A stretch of 64,000 nt of DNA from a virus (taxonomy: Duplodnaviria > Caudoviricetes), in IMG/VR virus record IMGVR_UViG_3300032007_000001. One strand, 5' to 3'. A program made the translations under genes and the position numbers. Of the stretch, positions 302-61,770 are shown piece after piece (position 1 is the first letter of the stretch; the number at the start of each line of letters is the position of its first letter). The notes beneath the pieces were generated by a model. That model had not been told where the DNA came from. It was given only the letters and a program-made list of their open reading frames with translations, and made no database searches.

Positions 302-843
302 TACAAGATACAATGAATATGATAGATAAAATTCTATCATCAGACAAACAAATCAATATGGTGGAAATGGTAGAGAATCTTACAAAAGATGCTGAAGACA
401 AGGAAGTCATGAAAGAATTAATGTGCTATTTTTTATTAGGATGTTTGAAAAAGAAGTTATCTTCCAATATAAGAGAAGATATAGTGAATAGTGTTGTAAA
501 TGATATATCAGACCCCAAAGATGCAAAAGAAAAAGCAGAAGCAATACAAGAATTCATATATAATAAGGAAGACTTTGTAGAAACATTAAAGAAGTTGAAG
601 AATGTAATAGATAACTCAAATAATTATACCAATGACAATGTGTTTGAAAAAGAATGCAATGATATAAATGAATTGATAAAACATAAACAATATATAAAAG
701 CATTGGATTCTATATATAAATTCTATCCACAAATAAAGACTCTTGTAGAAAACGATTCAATAAATAAAACAACAGCAGTATCATTGGATAATACAATTAA
801 TCAATTGGCAGATTTCTCATATATAAAGAAAGTAAAGGCTTGA
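292..843 (+). CDS. hypothetical helical protein
   Basis: 183-aa ORF with purine-rich RBS, followed by a hairpin and T-tract (~835-860). Confidence 0.7.
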   Translation: MPVVQDTMNMIDKILSSDKQINMVEMVENLTKDAEDKEVMKELMCYFLLGCLKKKLSSNIREDIVNSVVNDISDPKDAKEKAEAIQEFIYNKEDFVETLKKLKNVIDNSNNYTNDNVFEKECNDINELIKHKQYIKALDSIYKFYPQIKTLVENDSINKTTAVSLDNTINQLADFSYIKKVKA

Positions 844-886
844 GTGTTCAGGCCTTTTTATTTTGAAAATTTTTGTAAAAAAGGTA

Positions 887-915
887 TTTACAATTTCGAA
901 TTTCTGTGGTATAAT
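887..915 (+). promoter_or_regulatory. sigma70/sigmaA-type promoter for the tRNA-like gene
   Basis: TTTACA (887-892), 17 bp spacer, TG-G-TATAAT (910-915), A-rich UP element. Confidence 0.75.
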
Positions 916-932
916 TAAATCGTGGTTGAGGT

Positions 933-1007
933 CCGGATATGGTTCAATGGTAGAATGTGTGTTCGTATGAATGCGAGATATGTGTTCGATTCACATTATT
1001 CGGACCA
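933..1007 (+). tRNA. atypical tRNA (identity undetermined; 8-nt anticodon loop containing GTA)
   Basis: Acceptor stem CCGGATA/TATTCGG, discriminator A, encoded CCA; D arm GTTC-AATGGTA-GAAT; T arm ATGTG-TTCGATT-CACAT; anticodon loop TCGTATGA is non-canonical. Confidence 0.75.
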
Positions 1008-1040
1008 AATAAAAAAAATTAAAAAAATTGCAAAAAGGTA

Positions 1041-1069
1041 TTTACAAACTTGGAAATTTATGATATAAT
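1041..1069 (+). promoter_or_regulatory. sigma70/sigmaA-type promoter for the large ncRNA
   Basis: TTTACA, 17 bp, TG-A-TATAAT; shares AAAAAGGTATTTACAA with the tRNA promoter. Confidence 0.75.
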
Positions 1070-1075
1070 CTAATC

Positions 1076-2105
1076 ACAGTCAAAGAACAAACAAACATAA
1101 ACCAAACCAATGAAATGTATTTGAAGGAGGTGTTCATCTTCTAAAGAGTGAACATTCGAAAAATCTAAAATTGAAATCAGCAAAAAAGAAAGAGAGAAAA
1201 GTAAAATGAAGAACATGGAGTACGGAAAGCACGCCGGGCGGTTTGAGACCGCTTAATCTCTAAAAAATTTAAATTAAAAAATTAAAGGGAATTGCTACCC
1301 TGATGAGTTATCGGATGCCGCGAATAAACCTGGCGCAACACGTCAATGGTATCGCGGTCGGCAATCCAGGACCACCGAAGCAAAATCTAAAAAGGATAAA
1401 TAGTAAAAATGCGACGATGTAAAAAGAACTCCTGAGACGATAACAGGACATAAACATCTGAAAAAACATTAGAATAAATATAATTTGAAAAAGAGCCGGC
1501 CGGTCCATCGAAGGCCCGACCGGCCACAGCGGGGGAGATTCCCCGGATAATAGCGGCGGACATGCCAACGTGCGCAACAGCCGCAAAGACCGCACCATGA
1601 AGAGTGCAAAACAGAAGCCAAACTATACATGCTTCGGAAAGGAACACATATCGATGGCTAAAATCGACTACGGTTAGGTACTTTAACTACTAATAAATTG
1701 AAAAATTTAGCGAGACGCCGAATTTGCCAATGGCCGCATTTGGCTAGAACGACTAGCAACTTGGCCCGAAGATATGGCAAAAGCGAAACGACAAGGAAGA
1801 AGTCATAAAAACCGTACACCTAACCGCCGGGGAGAATTGCAAAAGTGGTTGCAAACATTTTTGCATGGCTTAAGAGAACGCAATCCTGTTATTTTTGGTG
1901 TTAGACAGGAAATGCATCTAGTGCGGAAGATTGAAGGTGATGGAGCAGCCTTCACATTGGTGAACGCCATAAAGAAAATCCCAATGGTAAGTCTCCCAAG
2001 TCCGAAGCGTGGTTCTCAGTGGGAACGCATAGCTCGGCAAGCGCGGCCTTGCTAAGAGCGGTCGCGGAATATGAAAAAAACCGACGGATTAATCTCCGTC
2101 GGTTT
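1076..2105 (+). ncRNA. putative large structured non-coding RNA (~1 kb; GOLLD/ROOL-like context, family not assigned)
   Basis: GC-rich island with no credible ORF, many GC-rich hairpins linked by A-rich stretches, own promoter and terminal hairpin, adjacent to a tRNA; boundaries approximate. Confidence 0.6.
2078..2105. terminator. bidirectional intrinsic terminator
   Basis: AAACCGACGGA-ttaatc-TCCGTCGGTTT between convergent transcription units. Confidence 0.75.
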
Positions 2106-2322
2106 CGTATTTTCTGAGTCTTTTGAATTTTGTACGGTAATTCCCACTTTTTATATATTTAGTAAGTAATACTTCAAATGGTGGATTTTCATCATCTTCT
2201 TCCACCGTTTCTTTTTCTTTAGGTGTATTCCAATCATATTGTCTTACATAATTATCATATCTCATATATGGTGATACTGGCATAATTGGCGATATGTCTG
2301 ATTCTTTAATTATCTCATCCAT
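2089..2322 (-). CDS. hypothetical protein
   Basis: 77-aa ORF with AAGGAG RBS. Confidence 0.6.
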   Translation of the reverse strand: MDEIIKESDISPIMPVSPYMRYDNYVRQYDWNTPKEKETVEEDDENPPFEVLLTKYIKSGNYRTKFKRLRKYETDGD

Positions 2323-2347
2323 TTTTTTACTCCTTCCTATTTACATT

Positions 2348-2713
2348 TCATTCATTCTGTGGTATAATTTCATTGTCGGAATTATCTTCCGATTCATTTT
2401 CTGATTCTAAATCTTCTTTGAATTTCTTAAAAACATTTGCCCAACCAGATATAAACATACTCATATTGGAAAAATCATATTCCAATTTATTATCACTGTC
2501 TTTTTGTGTAATGAGCATATGTAATTTTTGGTTATTGTCTACAGGCAAAATATTGTTACTTACACCTGAATTTATGATAAGTTCAAAGTCTCCATCTTGT
2601 TTATAGTAAGAATCGAAATTATTGACAGTTTTTGCAATGAACCCATAACTTTCCATATAACTTTTTATATCCGGATTTTCATTAAAAGCAAATTTTCTTA
2701 TAAGATGTTTCAT
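2348..2713 (-). CDS. hypothetical acidic protein with basic N-terminal leader (MKHLIRKFA)
   Basis: 121-aa ORF with GGGAGTG RBS. Confidence 0.7.
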   Translation of the reverse strand: MKHLIRKFAFNENPDIKSYMESYGFIAKTVNNFDSYYKQDGDFELIINSGVSNNILPVDNNQKLHMLITQKDSDNKLEYDFSNMSMFISGWANVFKKFKEDLESENESEDNSDNEIIPQNE

Positions 2714-2757
2714 GAATTTTCACTCCCAATTATTGAATAGAATTGGAGGTATAAATA

Positions 2758-3909
2758 ATGTATAATAATGAAGAACTTATGGAAATTTTTGAAGAAAATA
2801 TTTACGTTGCAAAAATTATGGCACAAGAAAAAATTATCGAGTGCTTAAAAAATAATCAATTGAACAAAAATAATGATTTCAAGATGCATTTTGAAATTGG
2901 CAATTTGCATTTTTTTGTGTATGATGTGTCCCGCAGCAGCGTCGCTCAATTTAACGATATTTCAAGAACGTATACTGAAATCCTCGAATGCATGGAAAAC
3001 AATACTTATGTTATTTCAATCGACATTTATGATATGGAAACAATGAAAATGAGCGTTGTAAACACATTGTTTCTTGTACAATATAAAGATACTTATGTTG
3101 GAACGTATTTCAATTGGGAAAATGCATACTCGTCACTTTCTGTTTGGAAAACCAATTATCTTTGTTCAGAAACGCATTTGATGCTAAAAGAATTTGATAA
3201 CGGAATACATTATGGTTTACATTCGCGCTATTTTGTGAAAGAATATGAAACTTTCAAATTTGTAATTGAATCTTCAAATACGTCAGATGGTGTAATTCCT
3301 AATTATAGTTTTAGGTATTATATCGTATTCCCATATTTCAATATCATTATCAACCGTAACGAAATTTTGGAAATGCTTAATTTTGATGATGAGATTTGCG
3401 ATTTGATTAGAAGTCTTTATATGCCAATCGAAGATTTGTCAAAAGAACAAAAGAAAAACATTGTCAATTTTCTTGGAAGAACTGTAAATATTCTATTTAA
3501 TCCGCTTGCATCTTTTAAGAGAATTTCAGTACATGTACATAGTGTATTTGACAATTGTTTTGTTTTGAAAAATAAAGATAATGAATCAAATGAAACGATA
3601 AAAGAAAAACATAAATTGTTTAGCAATATGATTTTGAGAAAAGCACAAGGCATGAAAAAATGTAATGTAGATGAACTCAAAAGGCAGAATCCGATTATGT
3701 CTTCTTATAATGTAATTGATTTTGATATTGGAGGTGTTATAGAGGATAATAAGGAAAATAAAGAATTTATGTATGTAAAAACTAGACTTGGGAATATAGC
3801 ATTTAGTTGTTATGAAAATGTTTTTCAACGTCACAAGAAGATTATAGAAGACAAATACGAAAAATTCAAATATACACAAAAAAAGTTGAATAGCAAAAAT
3901 TTTAATTGA
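2758..3909 (+). CDS. hypothetical protein
   Basis: 383-aa ORF with GGAGGT RBS; no motif recognised. Confidence 0.75.
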   Translation: MYNNEELMEIFEENIYVAKIMAQEKIIECLKNNQLNKNNDFKMHFEIGNLHFFVYDVSRSSVAQFNDISRTYTEILECMENNTYVISIDIYDMETMKMSVVNTLFLVQYKDTYVGTYFNWENAYSSLSVWKTNYLCSETHLMLKEFDNGIHYGLHSRYFVKEYETFKFVIESSNTSDGVIPNYSFRYYIVFPYFNIIINRNEILEMLNFDDEICDLIRSLYMPIEDLSKEQKKNIVNFLGRTVNILFNPLASFKRISVHVHSVFDNCFVLKNKDNESNETIKEKHKLFSNMILRKAQGMKKCNVDELKRQNPIMSSYNVIDFDIGGVIEDNKENKEFMYVKTRLGNIAFSCYENVFQRHKKIIEDKYEKFKYTQKKLNSKNFN

Positions 3910-4649: not shown

Positions 4650-5054
4650 ATGGGTGATATTATGGTAGAAGGCGAAGAAAATTTATTTCATATTTATGGG
4701 ATAAAAAATGATTTAACAAATAAATTTTTTTATATTGGTTGTACGACACAAGAATTACATAGAAGATTATATCAACATGCAAATGATTCTAAGAGCGCTG
4801 CATATGATAAAATTCAAGAAATAGGAGAATGCAATGTTTCTATTGTATTACTAAAAGACTATTATGGTATGATAGAAGAGGCGCATTTTATTGAAGGAGA
4901 ATATACGAAACTTTATAACGAAGATAATGAATTATTTAATAAAAAATTTGGAGACGTTTACTTTGAAGGCTTTAAGACAAAAATAAGAAAGCCTAAAAAG
5001 AATAGTCATGGAATCGATGTTTTACTGAAATACGCAAATCAAAAGCAGGCATAA
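4650..5054 (+). CDS. GIY-YIG nuclease family protein
   Basis: HIYGIKN...FYIGCT...RRLYQH...E motif. Confidence 0.75.
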   Translation: MGDIMVEGEENLFHIYGIKNDLTNKFFYIGCTTQELHRRLYQHANDSKSAAYDKIQEIGECNVSIVLLKDYYGMIEEAHFIEGEYTKLYNEDNELFNKKFGDVYFEGFKTKIRKPKKNSHGIDVLLKYANQKQA

Positions 5055-26675: not shown

Positions 26676-27038
26676 TTAAAATTGGCTTTCGTTATTTAAC
26701 GCATTAAATAAATATGTATTGTCCTTAAAATATCCCAATTGTTGATTTAACGAACTATGAAATTCTTTCATAGAATCTGCATCTTCGTTTGTTGGCAATT
26801 CCACTGTTTGCTGAAGTTTTTCATACAATTTTGGGTATCTATCATATAATTCATTCAAATCTTTATAAAGATTTATATACGTTTCAAGCAAAGCATCAGC
26901 ACTATCTTTTATTTCCAATAATTTAGCTCTTGCAGAAATTATTTCTTCTTTTGCGTCATTTGCCTTTTCATTGAGGTTTAGAGATATTACTCGCTTCAGC
27001 CTCTTTTTGTTGGATGAGCGATTCGAGTCCTTGTTCAT
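26676..27038 (-). CDS. hypothetical helical protein
   Basis: 120-aa ORF with basic N-terminus KRLKRVIS. Confidence 0.6.
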   Translation of the reverse strand: MNKDSNRSSNKKRLKRVISLNLNEKANDAKEEIISARAKLLEIKDSADALLETYINLYKDLNELYDRYPKLYEKLQQTVELPTNEDADSMKEFHSSLNQQLGYFKDNTYLFNALNNESQF

Positions 27039-28356
27039 CTATTTCAACTCCAAGTTCTTTCATTGTATTCGGTAACCAATTTTTATATACTTCAAGCGGT
27101 CTCGGATAATTCTCTGCAAATGTAAGTTTTTTCAATAATTCATTTTTTAATTCTCCAACCCATTTGCCGTCTGTTTTGTTTTTTGACGATTTAAGAATTT
27201 CCTGTCCAGTAACATGCAATTGATTAACAAAATATGGTCTTGCACAAAGCCAAAAATATATTTTTTCTGGTTTTGTTTTGTCACCAGTCTTGATAATATA
27301 TTTTCTATTATTTCTGTCTATAAGCATTTTAAGATAATGTATGTCTTTCTTTTTTTCTTCTTTGCCTATAGAACCAGCAATCTTCTTGATGCAATCGTTG
27401 TCACTTTCAACATCAAAAAAGTCCTTATTGTTGATTAACCACTTTATGGTATTCAATTCTTCTTTATTGAAAACATTGAATTTGGTTAATTCATCAATAT
27501 GTTTATTATCAATCAATTCTGACCAAATTTCCAATTCTCTGTCTTCCAATTTATTGAATTTTTCAATATCAAAATCAATATTTTCAAAAGCTTCAAAAAT
27601 TGGAGTTTGTATATTATTGATTGAGCATTTAGCGGAGAAAATATGATATTGATTCATTAATTTCAAAGCATCATTGGCATATTTCCCCTTTATGATTTTT
27701 CTAAGTTCTGTTCCAATTCTTTCTCCAGGAACAACAGAAAGATATTGTTTGCATTCATTTATTCCATTAAGAGTTGTTTCTTCTATTTCATATCCAAATT
27801 GTGACATAAAACGAAAAGCTCTTAAAATGCGTAAAGGGTCTTCATAAAATCTTTCTTTGGGATTTCCAATTGCTCTTATTATTTTATTTTGTACGTCATC
27901 AATACTGCTATATGAATTTCCATTATAATCAAATTTATAATCTACAAATTCGCCTTTATTCGTTAAAGCAATTGCATTGATACTAAAATCTCTTCTCGCT
28001 CTATCTTCATCCAATGTTTTTACAGTTTGAACGATTGGGTCTAGAAGTTTATTTCCATTTTCATCATAATAATTATCACTTCTATATGTAGCGATTTCAA
28101 AATTTTCACCAGCAAATGGTACAACCAATACGTTAAATGCTTTTCCAACATCATTGCTTCTTGGAAAAAGCGATTTTAATTTTTCTGTTTCAGCACTTGT
28201 TACGATATCAACATCTTTTGCTTTTATTCTATCTTTGTGAAATTGATTATGAAACATTGTTCTTGGTTTCCCACCAATAATATATGCTTCATATCCTGCT
28301 TTTACTATGATATTGACTAAAGCTTTTGCCGCTTCTAATGTATTGTCTTTCATCAT
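26968..28356 (-). CDS. cca: CCA tRNA nucleotidyltransferase / poly(A) polymerase family protein
   Basis: AYIIGG..R, KDVDIVT, EIATYR, DRARRDFSINA, RFYEDPLRILRAFRF, ERIGTEL. Confidence 0.9.
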   Translation of the reverse strand: MMKDNTLEAAKALVNIIVKAGYEAYIIGGKPRTMFHNQFHKDRIKAKDVDIVTSAETEKLKSLFPRSNDVGKAFNVLVVPFAGENFEIATYRSDNYYDENGNKLLDPIVQTVKTLDEDRARRDFSINAIALTNKGEFVDYKFDYNGNSYSSIDDVQNKIIRAIGNPKERFYEDPLRILRAFRFMSQFGYEIEETTLNGINECKQYLSVVPGERIGTELRKIIKGKYANDALKLMNQYHIFSAKCSINNIQTPIFEAFENIDFDIEKFNKLEDRELEIWSELIDNKHIDELTKFNVFNKEELNTIKWLINNKDFFDVESDNDCIKKIAGSIGKEEKKKDIHYLKMLIDRNNRKYIIKTGDKTKPEKIYFWLCARPYFVNQLHVTGQEILKSSKNKTDGKWVGELKNELLKKLTFAENYPRPLEVYKNWLPNTMKELGVEIDEQGLESLIQQKEAEASNISKPQ

Positions 28357-60469: not shown

Positions 60470-61770
60470 ATATAGAAAAACATTCCAATTAAAAAGTTTT
60501 AATAAATATTAGTATTGTACTGAATATTTATATGGCCTATTACATGCCTCTATTGGATCGATGACGTCATACGTCATGTTTCCAACTACTTTTTTTAAGA
60601 TATTATAACTTCCATTTACGTCTGCATTTATCGTTATTCCATTTTCACTTCTAAATAATCCTCTTTTTACTCTTTTTCCTTTATATACATCATGTTTACA
60701 TATATCTTCTTTATCAAGAAAGCTACATTTAGAAGTATAACTTTCCTCATGAGTAATTAAATTAATGCCTAATAATTTACATTTATAAGAAATCATAGTT
60801 AAAAGTTTATAAAATGGAATTTGTGTAAAATTTTGATTATTTACTTTTCCCATATTAATGTCTTGTTTCCAAGATTTATTATATCCTACTACTAAAGTAG
60901 ATATGTCATTAGAAACTAATTGATTCATTAAATAAGAAACACTTTTGTATAAATAATCATTAATTTTATTATTTCTTTTTAATGAAAGTTTTTGCAATCT
61001 TTTACTTGTATATTTATTATTTACTTTTATCAATTTTGAAACTATTTTTGCTTTTTTCTTATTATAATATTGGTTTATTGATTTTAATGGTTTGCCATTA
61101 ATAATTAACGGTTTGTGATTTGTAAAAACTAATGTCATTAAATTATTTAATCCTAAATCTATTGATGCATAATTTTGATTTGTTTTAACCTTTTTTTCTG
61201 TTTCATTATAAAGTACTTCTATTTTTACATATCCATTACATGGTACTATTCTTAATGCTTGAATTTTATTTTTATCTATTTTTGTTTTAATTTTTATATC
61301 TGTTCCACTTAATTTTATATAATTTTGTTCTTTAAGAGATAAAGCTTGTTTTGTATAAGGTACAATTTGTCTTCCTTTTATTGAATCCAAATATTTTGGT
61401 ATAGATACTTTTTTATTGTATTTATTTTGTTTTTTTAATTTGAGCAATTCAAAAAAAGACTTAAAGTTTTTGTCTACTATTTTTTGTATTTGTTGACTAA
61501 CTTTAGAAGGCAAAGCTCTATAATCTTGTTGATTATTTTGAGAAAATTCTTTATTGATTGTACAATAATTTTTATATTTTTGCGTATTAAAAAAATATTG
61601 TCTTATATCATATAATGTAGCGTTATATAAATTTTTAGATAAAAAACATAAATTATCCAATTCTTTATAAAACTTGTGATTTTGCTTAAAAATATGTGTT
61701 TCTACTAATATCATTTTTTCACCTCCTTATTTGAATAATACACTTAAGGTTATGTTTTGTTCATTGTTCT
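60470..61770 (-). mobile_element. TnpB-only IS200/IS605-like (IS1341-type) element, ends approximate
   Basis: solo tnpB with no tnpA in the window. Confidence 0.5.
60509..61714 (-). CDS. tnpB: IS200/IS605-family RNA-guided endonuclease TnpB
   Basis: SKNLYN, SIDLGLNN (RuvC-I), EESYTSKCS, RVKRGLF, NADVNGSYNI (RuvC-III). Confidence 0.9.
   Translation of the reverse strand: MILVETHIFKQNHKFYKELDNLCFLSKNLYNATLYDIRQYFFNTQKYKNYCTINKEFSQNNQQDYRALPSKVSQQIQKIVDKNFKSFFELLKLKKQNKYNKKVSIPKYLDSIKGRQIVPYTKQALSLKEQNYIKLSGTDIKIKTKIDKNKIQALRIVPCNGYVKIEVLYNETEKKVKTNQNYASIDLGLNNLMTLVFTNHKPLIINGKPLKSINQYYNKKKAKIVSKLIKVNNKYTSKRLQKLSLKRNNKINDYLYKSVSYLMNQLVSNDISTLVVGYNKSWKQDINMGKVNNQNFTQIPFYKLLTMISYKCKLLGINLITHEESYTSKCSFLDKEDICKHDVYKGKRVKRGLFRSENGITINADVNGSYNILKKVVGNMTYDVIDPIEACNRPYKYSVQY

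Follow-up and report, generated by a model that had tools for sequence, protein, structure and literature searches.

A putative structured non-coding RNA gene of about 1 kb, outside the families of Rfam 15, in a phage G-like rumen megaphage

Large and intricate RNAs are rare in bacteria and phages, and GOLLD, ROOL, OLE and raiA turned out to form RNA-only assemblies. GOLLD is made during the lytic cycle, and the tRNA cluster of phage T4 carries the stable RNAs called species 1 and 2. GOLLD (RF01998) is often located near tRNA genes and in prophages (PMC5737381). ROOL (RF03087) has an average length of 581 nt and occurs in several phyla; it was first found in cow rumen metagenomes and often lies by tRNA genes, in phages or prophages (PMC5737381). 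The ROOL family model contains six multistem junctions, three pseudoknots and about 10 highly conserved nucleotides (RF03087), and a further report describes RNA-only homo-oligomers of ROOL (PMC12286853).

The locus analyzed here belongs to a phage from cattle rumen. The window, that is, the whole analyzed stretch of 64,000 nucleotides, comprises bases 97,438-161,437 of a 504,279-bp virus record (G000) that was rated complete. Bacillus phage G is the closest named phage, and its gp1 shares 56% identity with the large terminase of the record; an uncultured relative with a genome of 416 kb (G001) reaches 85% identity. The standard genetic code reads the genome well, and its overall GC content is 29.7%. 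A single-copy island at 1076-2105 is the longest GC-rich stretch of this genome that lacks an ORF of at least 100 aa. The jump in composition that a first, sequence-only reading had noticed there was confirmed, with a GC content of 43.5% over 1076-2105 versus 27.5% in the flanks; the plus strand of the island contains 37% A and 19% T. Public runs that contain the window stem from the gut of cattle, sheep and goat. We conclude, with a probability of roughly 0.75-0.85, that 1076-2105 on the plus strand constitutes a real gene of about 1.0 kb for a structured, non-coding RNA, and that this RNA represents a family outside Rfam 15.

Homologues of the island were reached by synteny, using relatives of the neighboring 121-aa gene (2348-2713, minus strand), and three further island forms were obtained. 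Full-length islands of 1,083 nt and 1,196 nt are present in L092 (= L093, L094, L101, L102) and in L078 (= L079), respectively, and L096 contains only the 3' 390 nt. For the aligned locus, i.e., the island and its flanks, the pairwise identities were 72-82% among G000, L092 and L078; the partial L096 was 70% identical to G000. The syntenic gap of G001 contains an ORF-free, GC-richer and A-rich unit of about 570 nt with a promoter of the same type. This unit aligns with the RNA of the window only over the first ~110 nt, which contain the 5' module described below.

The sequence-only reading had proposed either membership in the GOLLD/ROOL class or a new large structured phage RNA. The second proposal stood, and the transcription unit, the non-coding character, the presence in RNA libraries and the covariation all speak for it. 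The first did not, as Rfam 15 gave no match. With cmscan, the GOLLD, ROOL, OLE, RNase P, tmRNA and intron models were all unmatched. At gathering scores, only the tRNA-like gene at 933-1004 was retrieved from positions 850-2350, and at E <=10, the island yielded nothing but terminator look-alikes. At E <=5, GOLLD, ROOL and the other families were also unmatched in L078, L092, L096 and the G001 locus. The Rfam models for group I and group II introns, HEARO, raiA, 6S, OLE, tmRNA and RNase P RNA found no match either. The tmRNA gene of the phage is located at G000:6105-6468 (Rfam, 104.7 bits; ARAGORN tag DNDYVAIAA), and therefore, the island is not the phage's tmRNA. A search of the literature did not retrieve the family.

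Because the defining models fail, the RNA is not a member of ROOL or GOLLD. Nevertheless, it resembles ROOL in being large, multi-helix and pseudoknotted, and in its occurrence in a rumen phage with a tRNA-like neighbor, although context alone does not define a family. It differs in length (~1,030 nt versus 581 nt), in its restriction to one phage lineage and in the exchange of modules, and self-assembly is a conjecture in this case. With GOLLD it shares the very large size, the tRNA-type neighbor and the phage context, but the model is unmatched and the conserved motifs are not shared. Like the species 1 and 2 RNAs of T4, it would be a stable phage RNA beside a tRNA-type gene, possibly co-transcribed with it; in contrast to them, it is about 10 times larger and is framed by a promoter and a terminator of its own, and the tRNA neighbor is being lost.

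The elements of the transcription unit are as follows.

887-915, plus strand: upstream promoter, TTTACA-17-TGgTATAAT, predicted to drive the tRNA-like gene; kept in L092 and L078
933-1007, plus strand: tRNA-like gene whose anticodon loop, UCGUAUGA, has 8 nt; scored by the Rfam tRNA model at 43.8 bits (933-1004)
1041-1069, plus strand: sigma-70-type promoter with extended -10; kept in L092, L078 and G001
1076-2105, plus strand: putative RNA gene; the distance between inferred start and terminator end is about 1,030 nt; based on an RNA-library contig and on the lack of an internal terminator and of a conserved ORF
2078-2105, both strands: bidirectional intrinsic terminator, common to the RNA gene and a convergent 77-aa gene (2089-2322, minus strand)

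Both boundaries that had been proposed from the sequence were borne out. The promoter at 1041-1069 has the form TTTACA-17-TGaTATAAT, with 11/12 matches and an extended -10, and the terminator is a hairpin of 11-12 bp that can be read on both strands. Neither an internal promoter nor an internal terminator was seen on the plus strand of the RNA gene. As no terminator is found before the RNA gene, the promoter at 887-915 is probably its second, tandem promoter and probably adds to its expression. A nearly identical promoter, AAAAAGGTATTTACA-N17-TGnTATAAT, recurs in the window (1041-1069, 887-915 and 2340-2368) and at 338-366 of L132, and it precedes numerous units in this phage and in G001. The recurrence suggests a single regulatory class of the host sigma-A type, which probably serves early genes.

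The tRNA-like gene lies 70 nt upstream of the island, and its anticodon was read by ARAGORN as the 4-base cgta. About 17 tRNA genes are clustered near both ends of the record. In L078, a 23-nt deletion takes out the anticodon arm, and in L092, only the first 18 nt are left; the promoter is retained in both cases. Judging from these deletions, the gene is decaying in the sister strains, and because they have lost either the anticodon arm or nearly all of it, it is not a stable partner of the RNA gene. At the place of the tRNA-like gene, G001 has a GC-rich putative transcript of about 170 nt (G001:281925-282097 = L042 2097-1925, minus strand) with the same promoter type. ARAGORN found no tRNA in this unit and Rfam gave no match; it ends in CUUCUAAAAA.

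Evidence for the presence of the RNA came from the contigs of four public runs, which were compared with positions 401-3400. In metatranscriptome X3 (rumen RNA), one contig of 894 nt corresponds to 1081-1974 with 0 mismatches. Its first base is located 12 nt after the -10 box, near the expected transcription start. Nothing else in 401-3400 was found in X3 at >=95% identity, and thus the flanking protein genes were absent. RNA from a second study (X14) contained 1238-1495 and a diverged copy of 1946-2077. Runs X5-X24 contained small shares of the sampled words; the contigs from X5, X6 and X14 were short, and most were near-identical to this phage (one X14 piece was diverged) rather than distant conserved parts. 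The X3 contig stops at 1974 and not at the terminator; as the strains differ at this position (UAAAG versus UUUUG), it was not taken as the 3' end, and it is probably an assembly break. In summary, the island is present as RNA in rumen libraries, which is good but not final evidence: assembled contigs are silent on strand, ends and level, and DNA carry-over in the libraries is possible.

The 93-aa ORF at 1774-2055 and the minus-strand ORFs at 1308-1598 and 1387-1647 are open in this one genome, and the island might therefore be read as a protein gene. A conserved coding signal in these ORFs, which the sequence-only reading had named among the observations that would speak against an RNA gene, was found neither with homologues nor with reading frames nor with periodicity. 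The ORFs of the island had no Pfam or PHROG match, and the 93-aa ORF matched only itself among 5.8 billion proteins. Two frameshifts, +2 near 1788 and -2 near 1891, disrupt the 93-aa ORF in L092, where a stop follows after 32 codons, and in L078 an insert of about 100 nt interrupts it. Of the six changes that X14 shows within this ORF, four are at first codon positions. In L078, L092 and L093, gene callers predicted zero genes in the islands of 1.2-1.4 kb, and a 3-nt periodicity of the 318 variable sites was absent in every 45-nt window. A close strain in X5 has indels of -1, +8, +1, +1 and -1, which also break the minus-strand ORFs; these ORFs cross the hypervariable block, with strain indels at 1488 (-1) and 1607 (+8). 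Judged by these comparisons, the island is non-coding, and the protein-gene reading, to which we give next to no credence, is refuted as far as the comparative data reach.

The following structural elements were predicted.

1304-1374, plus strand: module B, a long irregular hairpin with GGAU/AUCC and GCCGCGA/UCGCGGU; RNAalifold, 3 variants, 3 double-change pairs
1430-1448, plus strand: invariant hairpin UCCUG/CAGGA
1494-1600, plus strand: hypervariable block of hairpins (1498-1525, 1532-1544 and others), which differs between strains by replacement or in size
1614-1635, plus strand: hairpin GAAGC/GCUUC, with compensatory GAAGU/ACUUC in L078
1724-1780, plus strand: helix UUGCCA/UGGCAA around inner hairpins that are swapped in L078; read from the alignment
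1790-1996, plus strand: module E, the best supported domain, with helices 1823-1827/1923-1927, 1838-1847/1856-1865, 1885-1889/1905-1909, 1932-1937/1949-1954 and 1955-1960/1981-1986
1849-1854, plus strand: UUGCAA, a candidate kissing-loop contact; the sole 6-nt palindrome that never changes among the variants and is mostly unpaired in the predictions
1942-1996, plus strand: pseudoknot of GGAG (1942-1945, in the loop of hairpin 1932-1954) with CUCC (1993-1996); covariation
2042-2066, plus strand: variable 3' hairpin; sister strains have 1-3 extra hairpins before the terminator

The seven stems that had been named from the sequence are all exact inverted repeats and lie at the coordinates given for them. 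The folding energy was below that of dinucleotide shuffles on both strands (z = -3.1 for the plus strand and -5.8 for the minus strand, 20 shuffles each), and therefore, folding energy alone cannot pick the strand. In a curated variant alignment of 11 helices, which were picked by eye, 30 of the 62 pair columns vary; 16 of these show double compensatory and 8 single compatible changes, and 11/227 cells are unpaired. Covariation among homologues, the absence of which would have counted against the RNA, was thus seen at 16/62 curated pairs, with thin statistics because the alignment has only 3-4 distinct variants from one narrow lineage. The hairpins H1 and H3 recur in independent minimum-energy folds of all four variants.

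Module E was also counted automatically, using a model-fitted alignment and an RNAalifold structure derived from the same alignment, in which at least 2 helices are thought to be wrong. In this count, 94.3% of the cells were paired, versus 35-43% with slid partners, and 6 double-change pairs were found versus 0-1 in the slid controls. The covariation score was reached by 0/500 shuffles. The helix 1885-1889/1905-1909 occurs as CCUGU/ACAGG, CCAUC/GAUGG and UCUAG/CUAGA, and the helix 1823-1827/1923-1927 as ACCGC/GCGGA, AUCGC/GCGAU and ACUGC/GCAGU. The hairpin 1932-1937/1949-1954 reads UGAAGG/CCUUCA or UGGAAG/CUUCCA. The GGAG/CUCC pairing is replaced by AGCA/UGCU in L078 and by GGCA/UGCC in L096, and as both crossing helices covary, a pseudoknot is predicted. 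The loops GUUGCAAA, UUUUGGUGUU and GAAAAUCCCA of module E are invariant. The alignments indicate that these compensatory changes and invariant loops are the result of selection on the fold. The helix 1724/1780 gives no covariation because the helix itself is invariant. For the palindrome UUGCAA, it has to be considered that, with a dozen loops, chance could well yield one that is palindromic.

Two resemblances to known motifs were rejected. The hammerhead-like CUGAUGAG at 1301-1308 had no Rfam match and the wrong helix geometry, and it is located inside a covarying stem. A hairpin at 1494-1527 that resembles domain V of group II introns was ruled out by the lack of an Rfam match and by its helix geometry.

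The 5' part of the RNA contains two elements that could engage ribosomes.

1123-1155, plus strand: 5' module with the Shine-Dalgarno-like AAGGAGGUG (1124-1132), a 7-bp hairpin GUGUUCA/UGAACAU (1130-1155) and the loop AUCUUCUAAA; kept in G000, L092, L078 and G001
1206-1256, plus strand: 16-codon small ORF, MKNMEYGK..., without a good ribosome-binding site, which may or may not be translated

AAGGAGGUG matches the anti-Shine-Dalgarno sequence over 9 nt, and weaker forms of it are present in L092, L078 and G001. It is followed by AUC UUC UAA in all variants and in G001, the sole change being UAA to UAG in L078, which is still a stop codon. The 5' module motif occurs once per genome in that context, and the leader in G000 is C/A-rich and unstructured. 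Codons 5-7 of the small ORF vary between GAG/GAA, UAC/UAU and GGA/GGC/GGU, all of which are synonymous third-position changes in two lineages. These features would fit a messenger or dual-function RNA, in which the Shine-Dalgarno motif loads ribosomes on AUC UUC stop, or the 16-codon ORF is translated, or both, and the rest forms a structured 3' part. However, AUC is a very poor start codon, and the small ORF lacks a convincing ribosome-binding site. Its C-terminal half diverges freely, its stop is shifted by one codon in L092, and G001 shares only MK.M. The 5-6 sites are too few for a test, and a micropeptide would leave more than 800 nt of covarying structure unexplained. This reading is therefore regarded as improbable.

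Comparison of the strains revealed a mosaic. L092 is nearly identical to the window in 1600-2040 and divergent in 1200-1600, and L078 shows the reverse. The hairpins in 1494-1600 and after 2000 are replaced, resized, gained or lost among the strains. As far as the alignments tell, the RNA is built of hairpin modules that related strains exchange, resize, gain or lose. A putative promoter of L096 in front of module E was rejected, as its sequence corresponds to G000 1765-1790 in the alignment and the contig stops at this point.

Separately evolving modules, as in the reciprocal mosaic of L092 and L078, could also be expected if the ~1-kb transcript were a precursor from which cleavage in the A-rich linkers releases small stable module RNAs, e.g., decoys or regulators. 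The gain and loss of 3'-end hairpins, the presence of only the 5' module in G001 and the short RNA contigs of X14 are in agreement with this possibility. In addition, a linker motif, (U)CUAAAA, is 7-10x enriched in the islands of G000 and G001, albeit it was chosen after seeing the data. On the other hand, 2-3 CUAAAA sites are missing from L092, and X3 assembles 894 nt as a whole, even if contigs do not prove single molecules. The lack of internal promoters and terminators on the plus strand also argues against a precursor, and the pseudoknot and the helices 1823/1923 and 1724/1780 tie distant parts of the RNA together. Processing into module RNAs is thus rather unlikely, yet it ranks above the ribosome-engaging or micropeptide RNA.

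The distribution of the RNA is narrow. A distant-mode blastn search with the island against 50,697 phage records revealed no similarity, an exact 31-mer of the island was absent from the viral contigs, and in five related jumbo-phage records, blastn retrieved nothing beyond chance matches in A-rich sequence. The 121-aa gene family has one short contig in the JGI metagenomes and only G001 in the viral contigs. Two more distant clusters of this family, P0005 and P0006, are on contigs without the island at that place, and P0005-type contigs have an ordinary protein gene instead. The 383-aa and 183-aa neighbors are orphans. Two covariance models, R1 for module E and R2 for the 5' module, were applied to 14 records, where the weak matches (16-25 bits) fell within protein genes or A-rich sequence. 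Neither phage G nor any of 11 other related records had a credible match, and R2 matches G000 and G001 only. The three-invariant-loop pattern had zero matches in the viral contigs. A relaxed three-motif pattern, searched in 185,579 prokaryote genomes and the viral contigs, matched 10 prokaryotes (unrelated, from marine and soil sources) and 1 viral contig, none of which was scored by R1. The 5' motif AAGGAG-N6-ATCTTCTAAA matched 27 times in viral contigs; all matches except G001 were read as chance because a promoter and a GC-rich downstream region are missing. As the RNA is absent at the locus in more distant relatives and the models have no credible matches elsewhere, it seems to be confined to one narrow lineage and to be accessory, and the relatives without it indicate that it is dispensable for this kind of phage.

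A high GC content, absence from more distant relatives, a decaying tRNA-like neighbor and a mosaic strain pattern would also be expected for a passenger, i.e., decaying foreign or mobile DNA such as an intron remnant or host fragment that is transcribed by chance and has no function. This explanation is very improbable. It does not account for the selection on the fold or for the conservation of promoter and terminator. Furthermore, no intron, IS or ribozyme model matches the island, similar DNA is lacking in the phage records, and the matches of the prokaryote scan are scattered and not credible with the module E model.

We hypothesize that the RNA gene is transcribed from the host-type extended -10 promoter to the intrinsic terminator and that the RNA would accumulate as a stable species. 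It may act in trans as a scaffold whose conserved single-stranded loops bind a protein or another RNA, and copies of it may bind each other, as GOLLD and ROOL do, via the invariant palindromic loop UUGCAA. Such a scaffold or self-association mechanism is our favored guess and ranks first among the readings, but it is a tentative one. More speculatively, and with a rather low probability, the RNA could represent a new class in phage G-like megaphages that either self-assembles via a palindromic kissing loop or docks to the translation machinery via its Shine-Dalgarno motif, and that swaps modules between co-circulating strains, perhaps under host-defence pressure. If this were true, a module-swapping RNA would be the counterpart of mosaic phage proteins.

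To the known large RNAs, the locus adds an unrelated one of about 1 kb, in a half-megabase phage that is related to the culturable phage G. The natural strain variants map kept helices and exchangeable modules and offer a ready design for probing and deletion. The narrow distribution limits the present weight of the RNA. Nevertheless, it exemplifies that a search for GC-rich islands without ORFs uncovers real RNA genes in AT-rich phage genomes.

Several other features of the genome were observed. A second ORF-free, A-rich stretch with a GC content of 37% is located about 16.5-17 kb before the window start (G000:80394-80976), downstream of a unit with a TTTACA-type promoter; it had no Rfam match at E <=0.01 and may be another RNA gene. 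The window also encodes a protein of the CCA-adding enzyme or poly(A) polymerase family (26968-28356) and, on the minus strand, a TnpB-like protein (60509-61714; OrfB_IS605 and a Cas12f1-like TNB domain). A small GIY-YIG nuclease gene is located at 4650-5054, 2.5 kb downstream of the RNA gene, and its homologue is syntenic in G001.
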